Positions 2,808 through 43,902 of a stretch of 64,000 nucleotides of DNA are shown here, in pieces; the first letter of the stretch is position 1; each line of letters begins with the position of its first letter. The DNA comes from a virus, in IMG/VR virus record IMGVR_UViG_3300042691_038416, positions 32,001 to 96,000 of that record; one strand, given 5' to 3'. The position numbers and the translations under genes were made by a program. The notes under the pieces were generated by a model. It did no database searches. It saw nothing but the letters and a program-made list of their open reading frames with translations, and was not told the origin of the DNA.

Positions 2808-3769
2808 TACGCTGTTTTATATTTAGATAAGTTAGAATTGTCTGGTAGAAATTTACCTTTAAGGCCTAAACGATCTTGATTTTTAATCCAATAGTCTTGT
2901 AAATCATTTGGAATATCAGCTCTAGTTGAGTCTAAAATTCTTAAATATGTATCAAACACTCTATTCAATTTATCTTCAGGTAAATTCTTTTTAATATAAT
3001 CCATTAATTCAAAATAGTCATTTAGAATATCTTGAGTTAAATTAATGTTAAATCCTTTATTTAAAGCTTGTAATGCTTCTTGAGGACTAGTAGCTACTAT
3101 CTCACCAGTACTTTTTAATTTTACTCCTGTACCGTGACTGAAAGTCATATCTAATGCCTGGAATAAAGCTACCATTAATTGAGTTCTATGTAAACCTTTA
3201 ACATTATCTTTGTAAGTATTAGAATAGTAACTAAAATTTAACCAATCTATATTACCTACGTTAATATCAATTTGAACTGCTTTATCTTCTATTTGCTCAC
3301 CATTCTCATTAAACTGAGGGAAATTACAAAATATGGATCCGTTAGCAGTTGATTTATTATCAGTTTCCATAAACTCAGATTTTTCTTCCATGTTAGTAGA
3401 TACTAACTCTAACATGGCTCTAAGTTTACTTTGAGCCTCAGTTGCGCTTTTAGCTCTTTTTCTTATTTTTTCATAAGTAGCATTAAACTCATCAGAATTA
3501 ATATTCCAATCAGATAATAATGGTTCACCATCTTTAATAAAATGATCAACACTAAAACCTAAATCAATATCACCAGACTCGTCTTTTTTACCGACTGAGC
3601 CTAAAGTACTAAAGTCAAATTTTACTTTAGGATATATCTTTTTTAATTCCGCTACAAATTTTTCTAATGTAGGTTTAATATATTCTTTTTTTATACTAGA
3701 TGTGGTACCGAATACGTTACCTCCTTCATCAAGATATATTTCCCTTAAAAGACTGATTAAAGATACCAT
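2807..3769 (-). CDS. Pol-beta superfamily nucleotidyltransferase
   Basis: LGSVGKKDESGDIDL signature and third acidic strand VQID. Confidence 0.75.
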   Translation of the reverse strand: MVSLISLLREIYLDEGGNVFGTTSSIKKEYIKPTLEKFVAELKKIYPKVKFDFSTLGSVGKKDESGDIDLGFSVDHFIKDGEPLLSDWNINSDEFNATYEKIRKRAKSATEAQSKLRAMLELVSTNMEEKSEFMETDNKSTANGSIFCNFPQFNENGEQIEDKAVQIDINVGNIDWLNFSYYSNTYKDNVKGLHRTQLMVALFQALDMTFSHGTGVKLKSTGEIVATSPQEALQALNKGFNINLTQDILNDYFELMDYIKKNLPEDKLNRVFDTYLRILDSTRADIPNDLQDYWIKNQDRLGLKGKFLPDNSNLSKYKTA

Positions 3770-3792
3770 TAAATATTTTTGTCATAAATATG

Positions 3793-4587
3793 TTAAGTAC
3801 CCGGAACAATTTGAATTTCAGTGGGAAACTGTTCATTTGATGCCTTTGGCTCAGGATGTTCTAGTTTATATAACTCATGTATATATCCAAATAATTTTAA
3901 ATTTTCTTCAATAGATTTTGTAGGTTCATATAATTCCCATCCTTTACCTTGAATTTTTTCACCTTTTTTATCTTCACCGCGTTTTGATGATTTTAACCAT
4001 AATATTCCTATATGATCAATTTTTTCTTCATATAACTCATTCCATGCTTGAGCATAAGCGGCTAATTGTAGATCATAACTAGTATGTAATGAATTTGATG
4101 TTTTAATATCTAATAACCATCTTTTACCATCTATTTCTACTACTAAATCACAAGTACCAGCGTAAGTATATATATCTGAGAATAAATGGATTTCACTTTC
4201 AATTAATGTTGGTTTATATGTTGTCCAAAAATCATGGAATTTTAAAATCATTTTCCATACTTCTAAAGAATATTTAGAGTATCCATTTTCATCAACCCAT
4301 ACTATTTTTTCACCAGTTAAATATCTTTCAATAGCATCATGTACCTGTGTTCCTTCGTCAGCGGCTTTTCTAGCTATAATATCTGCATTATGTCCTACAT
4401 CTTTTAACCAGTTTTCAAAAAACTTATTTTTGGGCATATATTGTAATATACTAGTCACAGAAGGATATAATTTATTTTCTCGACTGTAATATCTGGTATC
4501 TAAAATATTAACTCGTTTAGATTCAGAATCTATTTTTACTAATCTTGTAACACTTTTTTTATGTACATTCACATTTTTTTCTATCAT
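3793..4587 (-). CDS. PD-(D/E)XK exonuclease
   Basis: YPSVTSIL, GTQVH, AGTCD..LDIKTS, QLAAYA motifs. Confidence 0.85.
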   Translation of the reverse strand: MIEKNVNVHKKSVTRLVKIDSESKRVNILDTRYYSRENKLYPSVTSILQYMPKNKFFENWLKDVGHNADIIARKAADEGTQVHDAIERYLTGEKIVWVDENGYSKYSLEVWKMILKFHDFWTTYKPTLIESEIHLFSDIYTYAGTCDLVVEIDGKRWLLDIKTSNSLHTSYDLQLAAYAQAWNELYEEKIDHIGILWLKSSKRGEDKKGEKIQGKGWELYEPTKSIEENLKLFGYIHELYKLEHPEPKASNEQFPTEIQIVPGT

Positions 4588-5516
4588 ATAATTTGTAGTT
4601 TTTTCTCAAGTAAATTTGAGAATGTTAGTGGTAAAGTGTTTTGAATTAAATTAGTAAATTTCTCAAACCCCATTTCACTAGGATCTTTATCTTCAAGATT
4701 CACCAAATAAACCTCTTTACCTTCGTTCATTAGTGTTTCACAAAAATTTAACGCCTGTTTAATAGCGTCTTTATCTAAGGCAATATATATTTTTTCAACT
4801 GATGAGTTGAGGATTTTCTTCATTAAGCTCTTCTGTATTGTTTTACCTAATAATGGTATAGCATTACGTTTAATAGTAATAGCATCAAACATGCCTTCAC
4901 ATAAAATAATAGGTACATTCCAATTAATAAAATGCTCTAAACCAATGATATCTCTAGCTACATCAGGATTTTTATATTTAATAGGTGAGTTTTTATCGAA
5001 GTTTCTTGCGGTAAAATAATTGAGATTTCCATTCTCACCATATGAGGGAATAATAATCATATTAGAGAATAAACCAAATTCACAATAACCTATATTATAC
5101 TTAATTATATCTTCTTTAGTAATACCTCTATTTTTAAGATATGTTATAGCTTTTTTAGCGGTTAAACTGTTTAATTGGGCGTTAGTTAATGGTATAAACT
5201 CTTTAGGTAACTCTGCTTTTTTATTATCAATAATTTCAACTTGTTTACCATCAGTTTTTACTAACAGTTTTAACTGGTTGATTTTATCTTGATCTACCTC
5301 TATCTTTTTAAATAATATAGTTAATTTTTTACCTTTAAATCCACATACCCAGCACTGATAAAATTGGAAATGAGGTGATGTTTCATTTAGGTTAATTTCT
5401 AGTTTTAATTTATGATGTTTGCATTCAGGGCAATGGTATGCTCTATTACCTTTAGATGTAGACTTACCTTTACCTAAGACAGAATCAATTAAGAATACTA
5501 GAGCATTATTAGTCAT
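4584..5516 (-). CDS. DNA primase (Zn finger + TOPRIM)
   Basis: CPEC..CWVC zinc finger; CEGMFDA, ALDKDA, KDPSE. Confidence 0.9.
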   Translation of the reverse strand: MTNNALVFLIDSVLGKGKSTSKGNRAYHCPECKHHKLKLEINLNETSPHFQFYQCWVCGFKGKKLTILFKKIEVDQDKINQLKLLVKTDGKQVEIIDNKKAELPKEFIPLTNAQLNSLTAKKAITYLKNRGITKEDIIKYNIGYCEFGLFSNMIIIPSYGENGNLNYFTARNFDKNSPIKYKNPDVARDIIGLEHFINWNVPIILCEGMFDAITIKRNAIPLLGKTIQKSLMKKILNSSVEKIYIALDKDAIKQALNFCETLMNEGKEVYLVNLEDKDPSEMGFEKFTNLIQNTLPLTFSNLLEKKLQII

Positions 5517-25885: not shown

Positions 25886-25973
25886 TTTTTGTTTTTTAAT
25901 TTGTTTTTTTTAAGGTTAATAATGATTTAATATATAATAAATATCCTAAGATTCCAAATAAAATAAATATTTT

Positions 25974-26165
25974 TCAATCTGTTTTCAAAATATTAGTATA
26001 ATATATAACTGTGTCCCAACCATCCTTAGAAGGATAAATCGGATCAGTAGAAGATTCTATGGTATAAAAATATAAAAAACTATTAGTAAAATCTTCATCC
26101 GCGGAGACATACTTTGATGCCTCCTCAGATGAAATTTTTTTAAGCGGCTTAAAGCGTCTTTCCAT
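25974..26165 (-). CDS. hypothetical protein
   Basis: ORF track. Confidence 0.5.
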   Translation of the reverse strand: MERRFKPLKKISSEEASKYVSADEDFTNSFLYFYTIESSTDPIYPSKDGWDTVIYYTNILKTD

Positions 26166-30385: not shown

Positions 30386-30482
30386 TGGCTCTGCCTCTTA
30401 TGAGGTGGCTTTATACATCAGCCTTGGGTCTCAAACCCTCAGAACCTGAATTGGCCCGTCGGCCCCATCCGTCGATGGTTTG

Positions 30483-30555
30483 TTGCGGAGACAGGAATCG
30501 AACCTGTGACCTCCAGGTTATGAGCCTGGCGAGCTACCTCTGCTACCACTCCGCG
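30483..30555 (-). tRNA. tRNA-Met(CAT), initiator-like
   Basis: CGCGGAG acceptor with C1:A72 mismatch, CCAGG-CTCATAA-CCTGG; no encoded CCA. Confidence 0.92.
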
Positions 30556-31958: not shown

Positions 31959-32219
31959 TTATTTATTGATTCTTACCATATATTGTCCTTCCACGATACG
32001 ATCTGCTTCTGTATATCCCGCTGAATCGTATTCAGGGCCTTCATCTGTTATTTCTTCCACATCATATTCAGATTCATATCCTCCATCTACAGTTTCATCG
32101 TTACCTTCTACATCTCCATTCATTACTCGTTCTAAAGCATCTTGTTCATTTTCTGCTTCAACTTCATATACCCATAAATGGTGTATTACTCGTGTTTCTG
32201 TGATTGCAAATTTTTTCAT
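31959..32219 (-). CDS. acidic hypothetical protein
   Basis: ORF with promoter motif; VEAENEQDA pattern. Confidence 0.7.
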   Translation of the reverse strand: MKKFAITETRVIHHLWVYEVEAENEQDALERVMNGDVEGNDETVDGGYESEYDVEEITDEGPEYDSAGYTEADRIVEGQYMVRINK

Positions 32220-41959: not shown

Positions 41960-41994
41960 GTTGTGTTGTTTATTTATACATATTAACACTTTTG

Positions 41995-42082
41995 CGGTCA
42001 GAACAGGAATCGAACCTGTGTTCTTATTCATCACATGTGTGAATAACTCTTATTAATTGCCTCACCATTCAGCCACCTGACC
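41995..42082 (-). ncRNA. tRNA-like RNA lacking a canonical anticodon arm
   Basis: GGTCAGG/TCTGACC acceptor, GCT-GAATGGTGA-GGC D arm, ACAGG-TTCGATT-CCTGT T arm. Confidence 0.65.
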
Positions 42083-43170: not shown

Positions 43171-43392
43171 AACCTTTTTATTGAATATAAATTTAAAAAC
43201 TTTATAAGCCAAATTATACTGTTTCTTCCCAAACTCCAATAAATTCAGAGATAAGTAATACAATTGAAGCCAATATCATATCATATGGTAGGAGAATATA
43301 TCCTATCATTCTAATAAATGATTTGGTAAAACTAAGCATTTTGTGTTTTTTAGGATCTGGATGATTCATCTTCTTTATATTTTAATTGTTAG

Positions 43393-43466
43393 TAGTCCCG
43401 ACGAGGATCGAACTCATAACCTACTGCTTAGAAGGCAGTTGCTCTATCCAATTGAGCTACGGGACC
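43393..43466 (-). tRNA. tRNA-Arg(TCT)
   Basis: ACTGC-CTTCTAA-GCAGT; canonical D and T arms. Confidence 0.93.
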
Positions 43467-43561
43467 ATATTTTAACAGTATGGACATTCATATCCTCGTT
43501 CTCTAACATCATAATATTTTTGACACTTAGAACATTTTTTCCACACTTCATGATTAAATAG

Positions 43562-43638
43562 TACTCCCGGAGGGACTTGAACCCACGTGTAACCAACTAC
43601 CCTTTCTACATGGTATAAGCATGAGGGGATACGGGAGC
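43562..43638 (-). ncRNA. rearranged tRNA-like RNA with TAT (Ile) anticodon-like loop
   Basis: GCTCCCG/CGGGAGT acceptor; CATG-CTTATAC-CATG arm precedes D-loop-like AGTTGGTTA; GGTTCAAGTCC T arm. Confidence 0.7.
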
Positions 43639-43644
43639 GTGAAT

Positions 43645-43902
43645 TCATATTGTTATTGTTACTTTATTATCTTTAAAACTAATTTCTTTTATTACTCTTA
43701 TTTTACCATCCATGAAATATCTTCCCACATCCATTCCTACTCTAATAAATGGACCACCTGATGGATCAACAAACTCAATAACTCCATCTAGATTTGTTCC
43801 TACTCTATAATAATCACCTCCTATCATTTCTATTTGATTATCACTAATCTGTTTAAAAATAATATCATCTCCGTAGCGGTTAATATAACTTGCGGTCTTC
43901 AT
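43645..43902 (-). CDS. hypothetical protein
   Basis: NRYGD...FVDPSGGPFI.VG. Confidence 0.7.
   Translation of the reverse strand: MKTASYINRYGDDIIFKQISDNQIEMIGGDYYRVGTNLDGVIEFVDPSGGPFIRVGMDVGRYFMDGKIRVIKEISFKDNKVTITI

Follow-up and report, generated by a model that had tools for sequence, protein, structure and literature searches.

A phage-borne tRNA-like gene with swapped internal segments, a probable decoder of AUA codons

Can a transfer RNA (tRNA) work in translation if its D-loop lies after the anticodon arm? The question is raised by a 77-nucleotide (nt) tRNA-like element on the minus strand of a 64,000-nt stretch of viral DNA (positions 32,001 to 96,000 of IMG/VR record IMGVR_UViG_3300042691_038416; hereafter the window). 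The element occupies window positions 43562-43638, RNA nt 1 being 43638, and has the parts of a class I tRNA in an order that is not that of the cloverleaf. A first-pass annotation, made from the sequence alone, took it for either a working AUA decoder with rewired connectivity or a mimic. The presence of the rewired element is confirmed by the analysis reported here, and its interpretation as an AUA decoder is supported: judging from its relatives, the element is probably a functional phage elongator tRNA-Ile(UAU) that decodes AUA with swapped core segments. The pattern of identity elements, the complementarity with canonical tRNA genes and the codon usage of the virus all favor a decoder over a mimic.

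Read on the minus strand, the window copy has the 7-base-pair (bp) acceptor stem, the T8-A9 dinucleotide, the 7-nt anticodon loop with TAT and the T arm that had been described. The acceptor stem consists of six Watson-Crick pairs plus a terminal G1-U, the anticodon stem of four Watson-Crick pairs with U-U at the would-be fifth, and the T loop is TTCAAGT, as expected from the TTCRA consensus. A terminal 7-bp acceptor stem with discriminator, a T arm with a 5-bp stem and 7-nt TTCRA loop, and an anticodon arm whose 7-nt loop has U33 and, at 37, a purine are all features of a canonical tRNA; U8 and A9 are also consensus in the Rfam tRNA model. The D region differs: there is no D hairpin between nt 9 and nt 26, and the partner strand lies 3' of the anticodon arm. 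The D-loop-like string is likewise found 3' of the anticodon arm, where the annotation had placed it, and homologs keep this order. Its residue after GG is U in the window copy, and the 15-48-like pair is G with C. The parts are listed below, with percentages that refer to alignment cells in the family of relatives described in the next section.

43632-43638 (-), RNA nt 1-7: acceptor stem, 5' strand; partner 43563-43569; 7 of 7 pairs change on both sides in the family, 97.8% of cells paired
43629-43631 (-), RNA nt 8-10: junction U8-A9-U10; uniform in the collected members, with letters preset by the search patterns
43626-43628 (-), RNA nt 11-13: enclosing helix ('D-stem'), 5' strand; partner 43600-43602; stands for canonical nt 23-25
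43624-43625 (-): unpaired C14 and U15, between the enclosing helix and the anticodon stem
43620-43623 (-), RNA nt 16-19: anticodon stem, 5' strand; partner 43609-43612; 4 of 4 pairs covary, 99.5% of cells paired
43613-43619 (-): anticodon loop, 7 nt; anticodon UAU at 43615-43617; C32, U33, A37
43609-43612 (-), RNA nt 27-30: anticodon stem, 3' strand, covarying as above
43603-43608 (-), RNA nt 31-36: purine-rich 6-nt linker joining the anticodon stem to the enclosing helix's 3' strand; letters mostly preset by the patterns
43600-43602 (-), RNA nt 37-39: enclosing helix, 3' strand; stands for canonical nt 10-12; N in the scans yet complementary to nt 11-13
43590-43599 (-): U40 and the D-loop-like segment (RNA nt 41-49), with A14-like and R15-like bases, two pyrimidines, a G18 G19-like pair of residues and the residue after GG
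43587-43589 (-), RNA nt 50-52: 3-nt C-A-Y connector; the R15-like base 43597 has the Y at 43587 as its 48-like partner
43570-43586 (-): T arm; 5-bp stem of 43582-43586 with 43570-43574, 7-nt loop 43575-43581; 5 of 5 pairs covary in the family
43562-43569 (-): acceptor stem, 3' strand (43563-43569), then discriminator A (43562); the gene encodes no CCA

In canonical numbering the proposed order is 1-9, 22-48, 10-21, C-A-Y, 49-76, which would amount to a swap of two internal blocks. Block 22-48, comprising the 3' strand of the D-stem, the anticodon arm and a variable-loop-like linker, would come directly after U8-A9; block 10-21, comprising the 5' strand of the D-stem and the D-loop, would follow and be joined to the T arm by the C-A-Y connector. 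Because this order places the anticodon arm inside the 'D-stem', the RNA is predicted to form a three-way junction, with the anticodon arm nested in the 3-bp 'D-stem' and a 13-nt single strand carrying the D-loop residues.

Relatives and covariation of the helices

Relatives were collected by pattern scans. A seed scan of IMG/VR, with a pattern that held only the two conserved anticodon-arm flanks, gave at least 117 stretches with 122 instances, 89 of them distinct. Alignment A1 holds 87 of these (one copy parsed at 67 nt, which cmsearch recovered at full length, and one mis-parsed copy were left out) and was used to build a covariance model, R1, that includes the window sequence. Three further scans, which required a non-C at nt 11, 12 or 13 and left nt 37-39 free, gave at least 120, at least 120 and 84 stretches. 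The family amounts to at least 417 instances, 301 of them distinct, over 413 sources; 292 distinct members pass the stem filters (at least 6 of 7 acceptor, 3 of 4 anticodon-stem and 4 of 5 T-stem pairs), nine having been dropped. Family fractions refer throughout to members among the matches listed, loci are pieces of 0.6-15 kb, and per-locus counts use 403 loci (of 410 sources searched). Members are usually 76-78 nt long.

Helix covariation in homologs, which the annotation had proposed as a check, was assessed on alignment A2, for which 150 of the 292 members were drawn from strata of helix type and anticodon, so that rare types are over-represented. All 20 proposed pairs change on both sides, and the covariation score was reached by 0 of 500 shuffles; 98.2% of cells are paired, compared with 35-45% when the partners are slid by 1-3 columns. 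The enclosing helix is paired in 99.6% of cells, with four Watson-Crick pair types at each of its three positions. In all, 23 combinations of its strands are seen; in 18 of them every pair is Watson-Crick, and these account for 286 of the 292 members. Most frequent are CCC/GGG (87), ACC/GGU (60), CUC/GAG (55) and CGG/CCG (32). Relatedly, in second R1 copies from the same loci, changes in the C-run are matched by changes in the G-run. RNAalifold applied to A2 alone predicts the same four helices, the enclosing helix included.

The swapped D-stem connectivity that had been proposed is thus borne out, the hallmarks of a D-loop being kept after the enclosing helix. The register of this helix needs correction: the helix exists, but as 3 bp between nt 11-13 and nt 37-39, not as CCCU/AGGG. 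The latter register was the first to be modelled, when the helix was invariant by search design, and is ruled out by the covariation of 11-39, 12-38 and 13-37. In the window element the 3-bp helix encloses the anticodon arm, and the D-loop-like strand precedes the T arm with an R that pairs with the Y next to the T stem. Other positions were free to vary and hardly do so: a free-loop scan of 89 distinct members has C32 and A37 in 89/89 and U33 in 88/89, and C14 is near-invariant (entropy 0.03) though left free in the three follow-up scans, whereas U15 was preset by the patterns.

An all-against-all mutual information (MI) scan with average product correction, made on the 273 of 292 members that are 77 nt long with a 12-nt connector, places all 19 helix pairs within the top 20. 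The best non-helical pair, at rank 18, is the 15-48-like pair (A-U in 199 and G-C in 53 of 273 members; in A2, A-U in 107 and G-C in 28 of 150). In ordinary tRNAs R15-Y48 is the Levitt pair, and G18 and G19 dock on the T loop.

The family is well separated from canonical tRNAs by R1. The window element scores 95.9 bits, partly by construction, versus at most 21.2 for the canonical tRNAs of the window; on 100 other loci (826,041 bases) members score at least 64.8 bits and canonical tRNAs at most 30.2, with three hits at 34.6-39.6. Standard tRNA finders miss or mis-score the family, as the annotation had anticipated. ARAGORN reports five tRNAs in the window, the element not among them, and Rfam at gathering thresholds reports the same five. 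ARAGORN is blind to 287 of the 292 members; its five overlapping calls are four with over-long bounds and one tRNA-Leu that lies mostly outside the element. When 601 bases (43300-43900) were searched with an E-value threshold, the Rfam tRNA model (RF00005) gave a hit (E 0.0097) that spans exactly the 77 nt, deleting 15 D-arm model positions (with 4 nt in their place) and adding an 18-nt insertion in the variable region. This is not a good canonical cloverleaf score, at 24.5 bits compared with 38-68 bits for the canonical tRNAs of the window. The element is more than a chance match. In the GenBank record of Streptomyces phage EGole, exactly the 77 nt of a member (L487 395-471) are labelled as a tRNA-Leu reading UUA; the loop holds GAU (Ile). 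The other Streptomyces phage records listed have no annotation at that place, and GenBank copies are almost never annotated.

Searches of GenBank phages with blastn gave matches in crAss-like phage cr130_1, bajarodcaudo virus 1, Rhodococcus phage Peregrin and Streptomyces phages LilMartin, MulchMansion, Angela and Coruscant. The copies of cr130_1, bajarodcaudo virus 1, Peregrin, LilMartin and Coruscant were read, and the arm order is kept in 5/5, with compensated acceptor and anticodon stems. Cultured or named carriers (read or matched by blastn) comprise Streptomyces phages (77 records), Microbacterium phage A3Wally, Peregrin, cr130_1 and Felix O1. Two rewired genes occur in 14 of 403 loci among the matches listed, sometimes side by side with different anticodons, such as UAU and GAU 13 nt apart (L013 9881-10047, L393 4447-4606, L211 1373-1541).

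Cellular genomes carry the family far less often. One genome for each of 185,579 prokaryote species was scanned and gave 61 stretches (two of them cut at a contig end), versus more than 400 viral contigs. Sixty copies were parsed in 59 of the 61 stretches: UAU 34, GAU 13, CAU 8 and Arg 5. A near-identical UAU copy is found repeatedly among isolates of Chryseolinea, Ohtaekwangia and Chryseosolibacter, as well as among related metagenome-assembled genomes. Five such genomes have one copy each (5/5), inside arrays of 2 to 17 tRNA genes. The annotation had raised the prospect of AUA decoding with no need for lysidine made by TilS; this holds trivially, as a UAU anticodon needs none, but these five genomes all keep TilS, scoring above cut-off, and give no sign of TilS being replaced (5/5). 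Separately, in two Bacteroidota genomes (L413, about 5211-5287, and L445, about 3734-3810, both minus strand), Chryseolinea-type UAU copies diverge right after the TTC of the T loop, which would look like the tRNA-gene attachment site of an integrated element.

Anticodons, identity residues and genomic setting

Homologs that keep the arm order vary in anticodon only within Ile, CAU and Arg: among the 292 members there are UAU 151, GAU 58, CAU 32, ACG 30, UCU 15, CCU 3, UCG 2 and CCG 1. A scan for other isotypes that required G or T at nt 35 gave four stretches, none of them tRNA-like. When the fetched loci were searched with a descriptor of topology only, requiring no linker sequence, the same isotypes came back along with three hits with odd anticodons; these three were read as chance matches, two being recognized as pieces of canonical tRNAs. 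This search also brought up a divergent subgroup of rewired Arg genes (UCU, ACG, UCG), seen in loci L395, L166, L340, L218, L221, L130 and L057 (5487-5565). Because this subgroup has the same topology with other junctions, linkers of 4-9 nt and longer D-loop-like strands, the rewired class is wider than the sequence patterns captured.

Residues outside the anticodon follow the isotype. The residue after GG is A in 51/51 Arg members and U in 235/241 Ile and CAU members; the discriminator is A in 241/241 Ile and CAU members, and G (30), A (17) or U (4) in Arg members. Known identity elements for ArgRS are A20, C35 and G/A73, and A73 is usual for tRNA-Ile. As a control, the canonical tRNAs that ARAGORN finds in the same loci have A after GG in 209 of 221 tRNA-Arg having GG, and U in 87 of 102 tRNA-Ile. 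In the MI scan, anticodon nt 35 covaries with the residue after GG at rank 19 and is coupled to the discriminator as well. Since the identity residues, the R15-Y48-like pair and the canonical-tRNA control agree, the strand after the anticodon arm appears, from its sequence, to behave as a true D-loop.

Rewired genes also sit where tRNA genes sit. A member shares its strand with the nearest canonical tRNA in 264 of 266 cases, at a gap whose median is 98 nt. Loci with and without a rewired gene were compared (Fisher) for the presence of a canonical tRNA of the same anticodon. Such a tRNA is present in 2/226 loci with a rewired UAU gene versus 37/177 without (p = 2e-12), in 0/18 versus 183/385 for UCU (p = 2e-5) and in 0/36 versus 47/367 for ACG (p = 0.014), p-values that are indicative only because the loci are partial and mutually related. 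Felix O1 (NC_005282) gives an example from a named phage: a rewired Arg(UCU) gene that has no annotation and belongs to the divergent subgroup, at 25951-26029 on the plus strand (L501 252-330; 43.1 bits with R1), lies in a tRNA cluster that has a canonical Arg(ACG) and lacks a canonical Arg(UCU). An annotated HNH endonuclease coding sequence of Felix O1 is drawn as starting inside this gene. In Streptomyces phages (L004 957-1572, L005 961-1571, L487 1-471) the rewired tRNA sits between a nucleotidyltransferase gene, which immediately precedes it, and an FtsK-like gene, which follows; for the nucleotidyltransferase there is a weak Pfam match to RlaP (RNA repair pathway; 22.3 bits, cut-off 23). 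A3Wally has an RNA ligase gene near its tRNA genes.

The window derives from a 124-kb IMG/VR virus record that is 76% complete and 30% G+C, and 107 of its 109 long open reading frames (ORFs) are on the minus strand, as is the element. ATA makes up 984 of 2651 Ile codons (37%) in this virus; AGA supplies 60% of Arg, TTA 69% of Leu and GAA 84% of Glu codons. ARAGORN finds canonical Met(CAU), Leu(UAA), Leu(AAG), Glu(UUC) and Arg(UCU) tRNAs and no canonical tRNA-Ile in the 124-kb record, and the tRNA-Arg(UCU) lies 95 nt downstream of the element on the same strand. A UAU tRNA completes a set aimed at the A-ending codons of the phage.

Two of the canonical calls in the window are themselves unusual. 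The tRNA-Leu(AAG) at 41994-42082 (minus strand, 89 nt) has its anticodon at the unusual position 32 and scores 38.5 bits with Rfam, with 28 nt unaligned in the anticodon region and a weak anticodon stem, so that its isotype and its structure are uncertain; the CAU tRNA at 30482-30555 (minus strand) scores 39.8 bits and has several non-standard acceptor and D-stem pairs. Around the element, PHROGs and Pfam assigned the neighboring genes only to families of unknown function, and a scan for promoters and terminators stayed at chance level. Among five RNA or possibly RNA sequencing runs that share few words with the stretch, four gave contigs only, with depth on the neighboring tRNA-Arg. The loose ends of the RNA-run contigs came from other organisms, mostly from their tRNA-Arg, and two short contigs that touch the element came from a probably DNA run.

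Decoder, decoy or re-ordered precursor

If the element is a decoder, the enclosing helix would stack on the anticodon stem as the D stem does, GG would dock on the T loop, and the R15-Y48, U8-A14 and A21 contacts would form as usual to give a normal L shape. The RNA would be cut from a tRNA-cluster transcript by RNase P and receive CCA from the CCA-adding enzyme; charging by the host IleRS and acceptance by EF-Tu and the ribosome would then let it serve the heavy AUA use of an AT-rich phage. The swap itself may have arisen, speculatively, by tandem duplication followed by two deletions.

Several points weigh against a decoder of this kind. The T stem of the window copy has U-U at its second pair (as do 12 of 150 aligned members), and the 15-48-like pair is non-standard in 11 of 150 A2 members. 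The single-sequence fold is not special (z = -0.27; 70 of 200 shuffles fold equally well), and the minimum-free-energy structure of the window copy, which by itself speaks neither way, retains just the acceptor stem and part of the arms. The Rfam score lies below the 29-bit cut-off. Invariance at nt 8-10, 15, 31, 33-36, 40-41, GG and C-A was imposed by the search patterns. Loci come from related phages and are not independent, and a canonical gene may sit outside a piece; moreover, the comparison of loci is not significant for GAU (12/87 versus 67/316, p = 0.13) or CAU (17/42 versus 121/361, p = 0.39). The element also lies inside a 58-codon ORF (43472-43648, minus strand) whose ATG overlaps the upstream stop. 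Finally, what was observed is sequence, covariation, identity-element pattern, genomic context and codon usage, from which we infer expression, processing, CCA addition, charging and decoding; the L-shaped fold is deduced from conserved residues.

An alternative is an RNA that is made and folds like a tRNA with no role in translation, acting as a sponge for anticodon nucleases or other tRNA-binding defenses, or as the substrate of a phage enzyme. We consider such a mimic or decoy unlikely, because the synthetase identity pattern and the slot complementarity speak against it. A decoy would have no need to keep the identity set (A after GG, C35, G/A discriminator), to avoid loci that have a canonical tRNA of the same anticodon, or to match phage codon usage, and the family retains eight distinct sense anticodons together with C32, U33 and A37. 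Its attractions are that the rewired core is limited to few isotypes, that the family is mainly phage-borne, as the scan of prokaryote species indicates, and that RNA-repair-type genes lie nearby in some actinophages (the A3Wally RNA ligase, and the nucleotidyltransferase with its sub-cut-off RlaP match).

The ligase bears on another explanation too, that the transcript is a precursor, cut and re-ligated to the canonical order, so that the mature RNA would be an ordinary cloverleaf. Swapping the two blocks back would, from a reading of the sequence, restore a regular D arm, and an RNA ligase lies near tRNA genes in some carrier phages. But circularization plus one cut could not bring back the canonical order: with the two acceptor strands already forming the gene's ends, it would take two cuts and two ligations in a set order. 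The R15-like base, moreover, covaries with the Y of the C-A-Y connector, which is present only in the rewired order, and no bulge-helix-bulge or similar cleavage motif was noticed as conserved, though no formal search for one was made. We therefore hold re-ordering to be very improbable.

The chance that the element is a decayed tRNA pseudogene or mere part of the 58-codon ORF, devoid of RNA function, is negligible, because compensatory changes preserve the RNA helices in hundreds of relatives. The frame stays open through the element and spans the 95-nt spacer before the tRNA-Arg, and its last 22 residues, which lie outside the element, have two CxxC pairs and resemble a tiny zinc ribbon. But no Pfam match was found for the ORF, and tBLASTN similarity at most other loci listed covers only residues ~5-30, that is, the element itself. 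In the two longer tBLASTN matches that were translated, the frame ends at a stop codon, immediately past the element in L088 and 10 codons past it in L086. A protein-coding reading of this ORF is ruled out, its frame not being conserved in other loci.

Taking the element to be a decoder, one may ask why such genes spread. A tentative answer, which we regard as possible without thinking it likely, is that they form one lineage of functional segment-swapped tRNAs accepted by IleRS, ArgRS, EF-Tu and ribosomes, and that the re-threaded D region lets them escape tRNA nucleases or host-shutoff enzymes that recognize the normal D arm. On this reading unrelated phages of Actinomycetota, Bacteroidota and Enterobacteria would carry them to keep AUA, AGA and CGN decoding going under attack on host tRNAs. 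If the element and its relatives do decode, the L shape and not the connectivity of the cloverleaf would be the requirement of the translation apparatus. Hundreds of unannotated phage Ile and Arg tRNA genes would be added and estimates of phage codon autonomy would change, with Felix O1 and ~77 Streptomyces phage records among those affected. The family would also offer natural scaffolds for orthogonal or nuclease-resistant tRNAs and a concrete, testable case of phage tRNAs shaped by host tRNA-targeting defenses. The cultured carriers make it directly testable.

Comparison with known tRNAs and tRNA-like structures

To our knowledge, outside mitochondria the cloverleaf counts as nearly invariant. 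The rewired genes share most of their features with canonical class I tRNA-Ile and tRNA-Arg (RF00005): an acceptor stem of 7 bp followed by U8-A9, an anticodon loop of 7 nt in which U33 and A37 stand, a T stem of 5 bp closed by a TTCRA loop, a D-loop-like string containing GG, covariation of R15 with Y48, an A after GG that is specific to Arg, a length of 76-78 nt and location in tRNA gene arrays. They differ in having no D hairpin between nt 9 and the anticodon arm; the D-stem strands flank that arm and the D-loop follows it, giving a three-way instead of a four-way junction.

D-arm-lacking mitochondrial tRNAs likewise have no D hairpin at the usual place, and Rfam aligns the element in the same manner, with the D arm deleted. 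Animal mitochondrial tRNA-Ser(AGY) and nematode and mite tRNAs are shortened and have lost the D-loop and the G18 G19 contacts. The rewired family, in contrast, is full length, keeps the D-stem pairing and D-loop residues, and occurs in phages and bacteria; the window element itself retains the pairing and GG within its 77 nt.

A non-canonical order of segments within the gene is shared with the circularly permuted tRNA genes of the red alga Cyanidioschyzon merolae. In these the 3' half of the tRNA stands ahead of the 5' half, and a normal cloverleaf is regained when the transcript is processed by way of a circular intermediate. The acceptor strands of the rewired gene are not internal, as in the algal type, but are the first and last 7 nt of the paired element, and only two internal blocks are swapped. 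Because its ends are normal in this way, the mature rewired RNA should itself be non-canonical.

Our search of full-text literature, which left most subscription journals and supplements outside, found no description of the rewired layout, and an earlier one is possible. A passage of a 2024 paper states that every known tRNA of bacteria takes on the cloverleaf (PMC11551756). In the portion of a 2020 review that lists non-canonical tRNAs, the only ones named are tRNA-Sec, Sec-like tRNAs, allo-tRNA, tRNA-Pyl and mitochondrial tRNAs (PMC7609411). As far as the relevant excerpts go, tRNA-Sec, allo-tRNA and tRNA-Pyl are still cloverleaves, with changed stem lengths such as 8/4 and 9/3 (PMC7609411, PMC5389517). 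Like the rewired genes, these are natural tRNAs, some of them from bacteria or phages, that depart from the 7/5 cloverleaf; unlike in the rewired genes, the order of their arms is, in the same excerpts, unchanged.

The tRNA-like structures at the 3' ends of plant RNA viruses resemble the element in that an L-shaped mimic is possible with a different connectivity of strands. These structures stand at the ends of long genomes, have pseudoknotted acceptor arms and do not decode. The element differs from them in being a gene of its own, 77 nt long, whose acceptor stem is normal and whose anticodon is a sense one.

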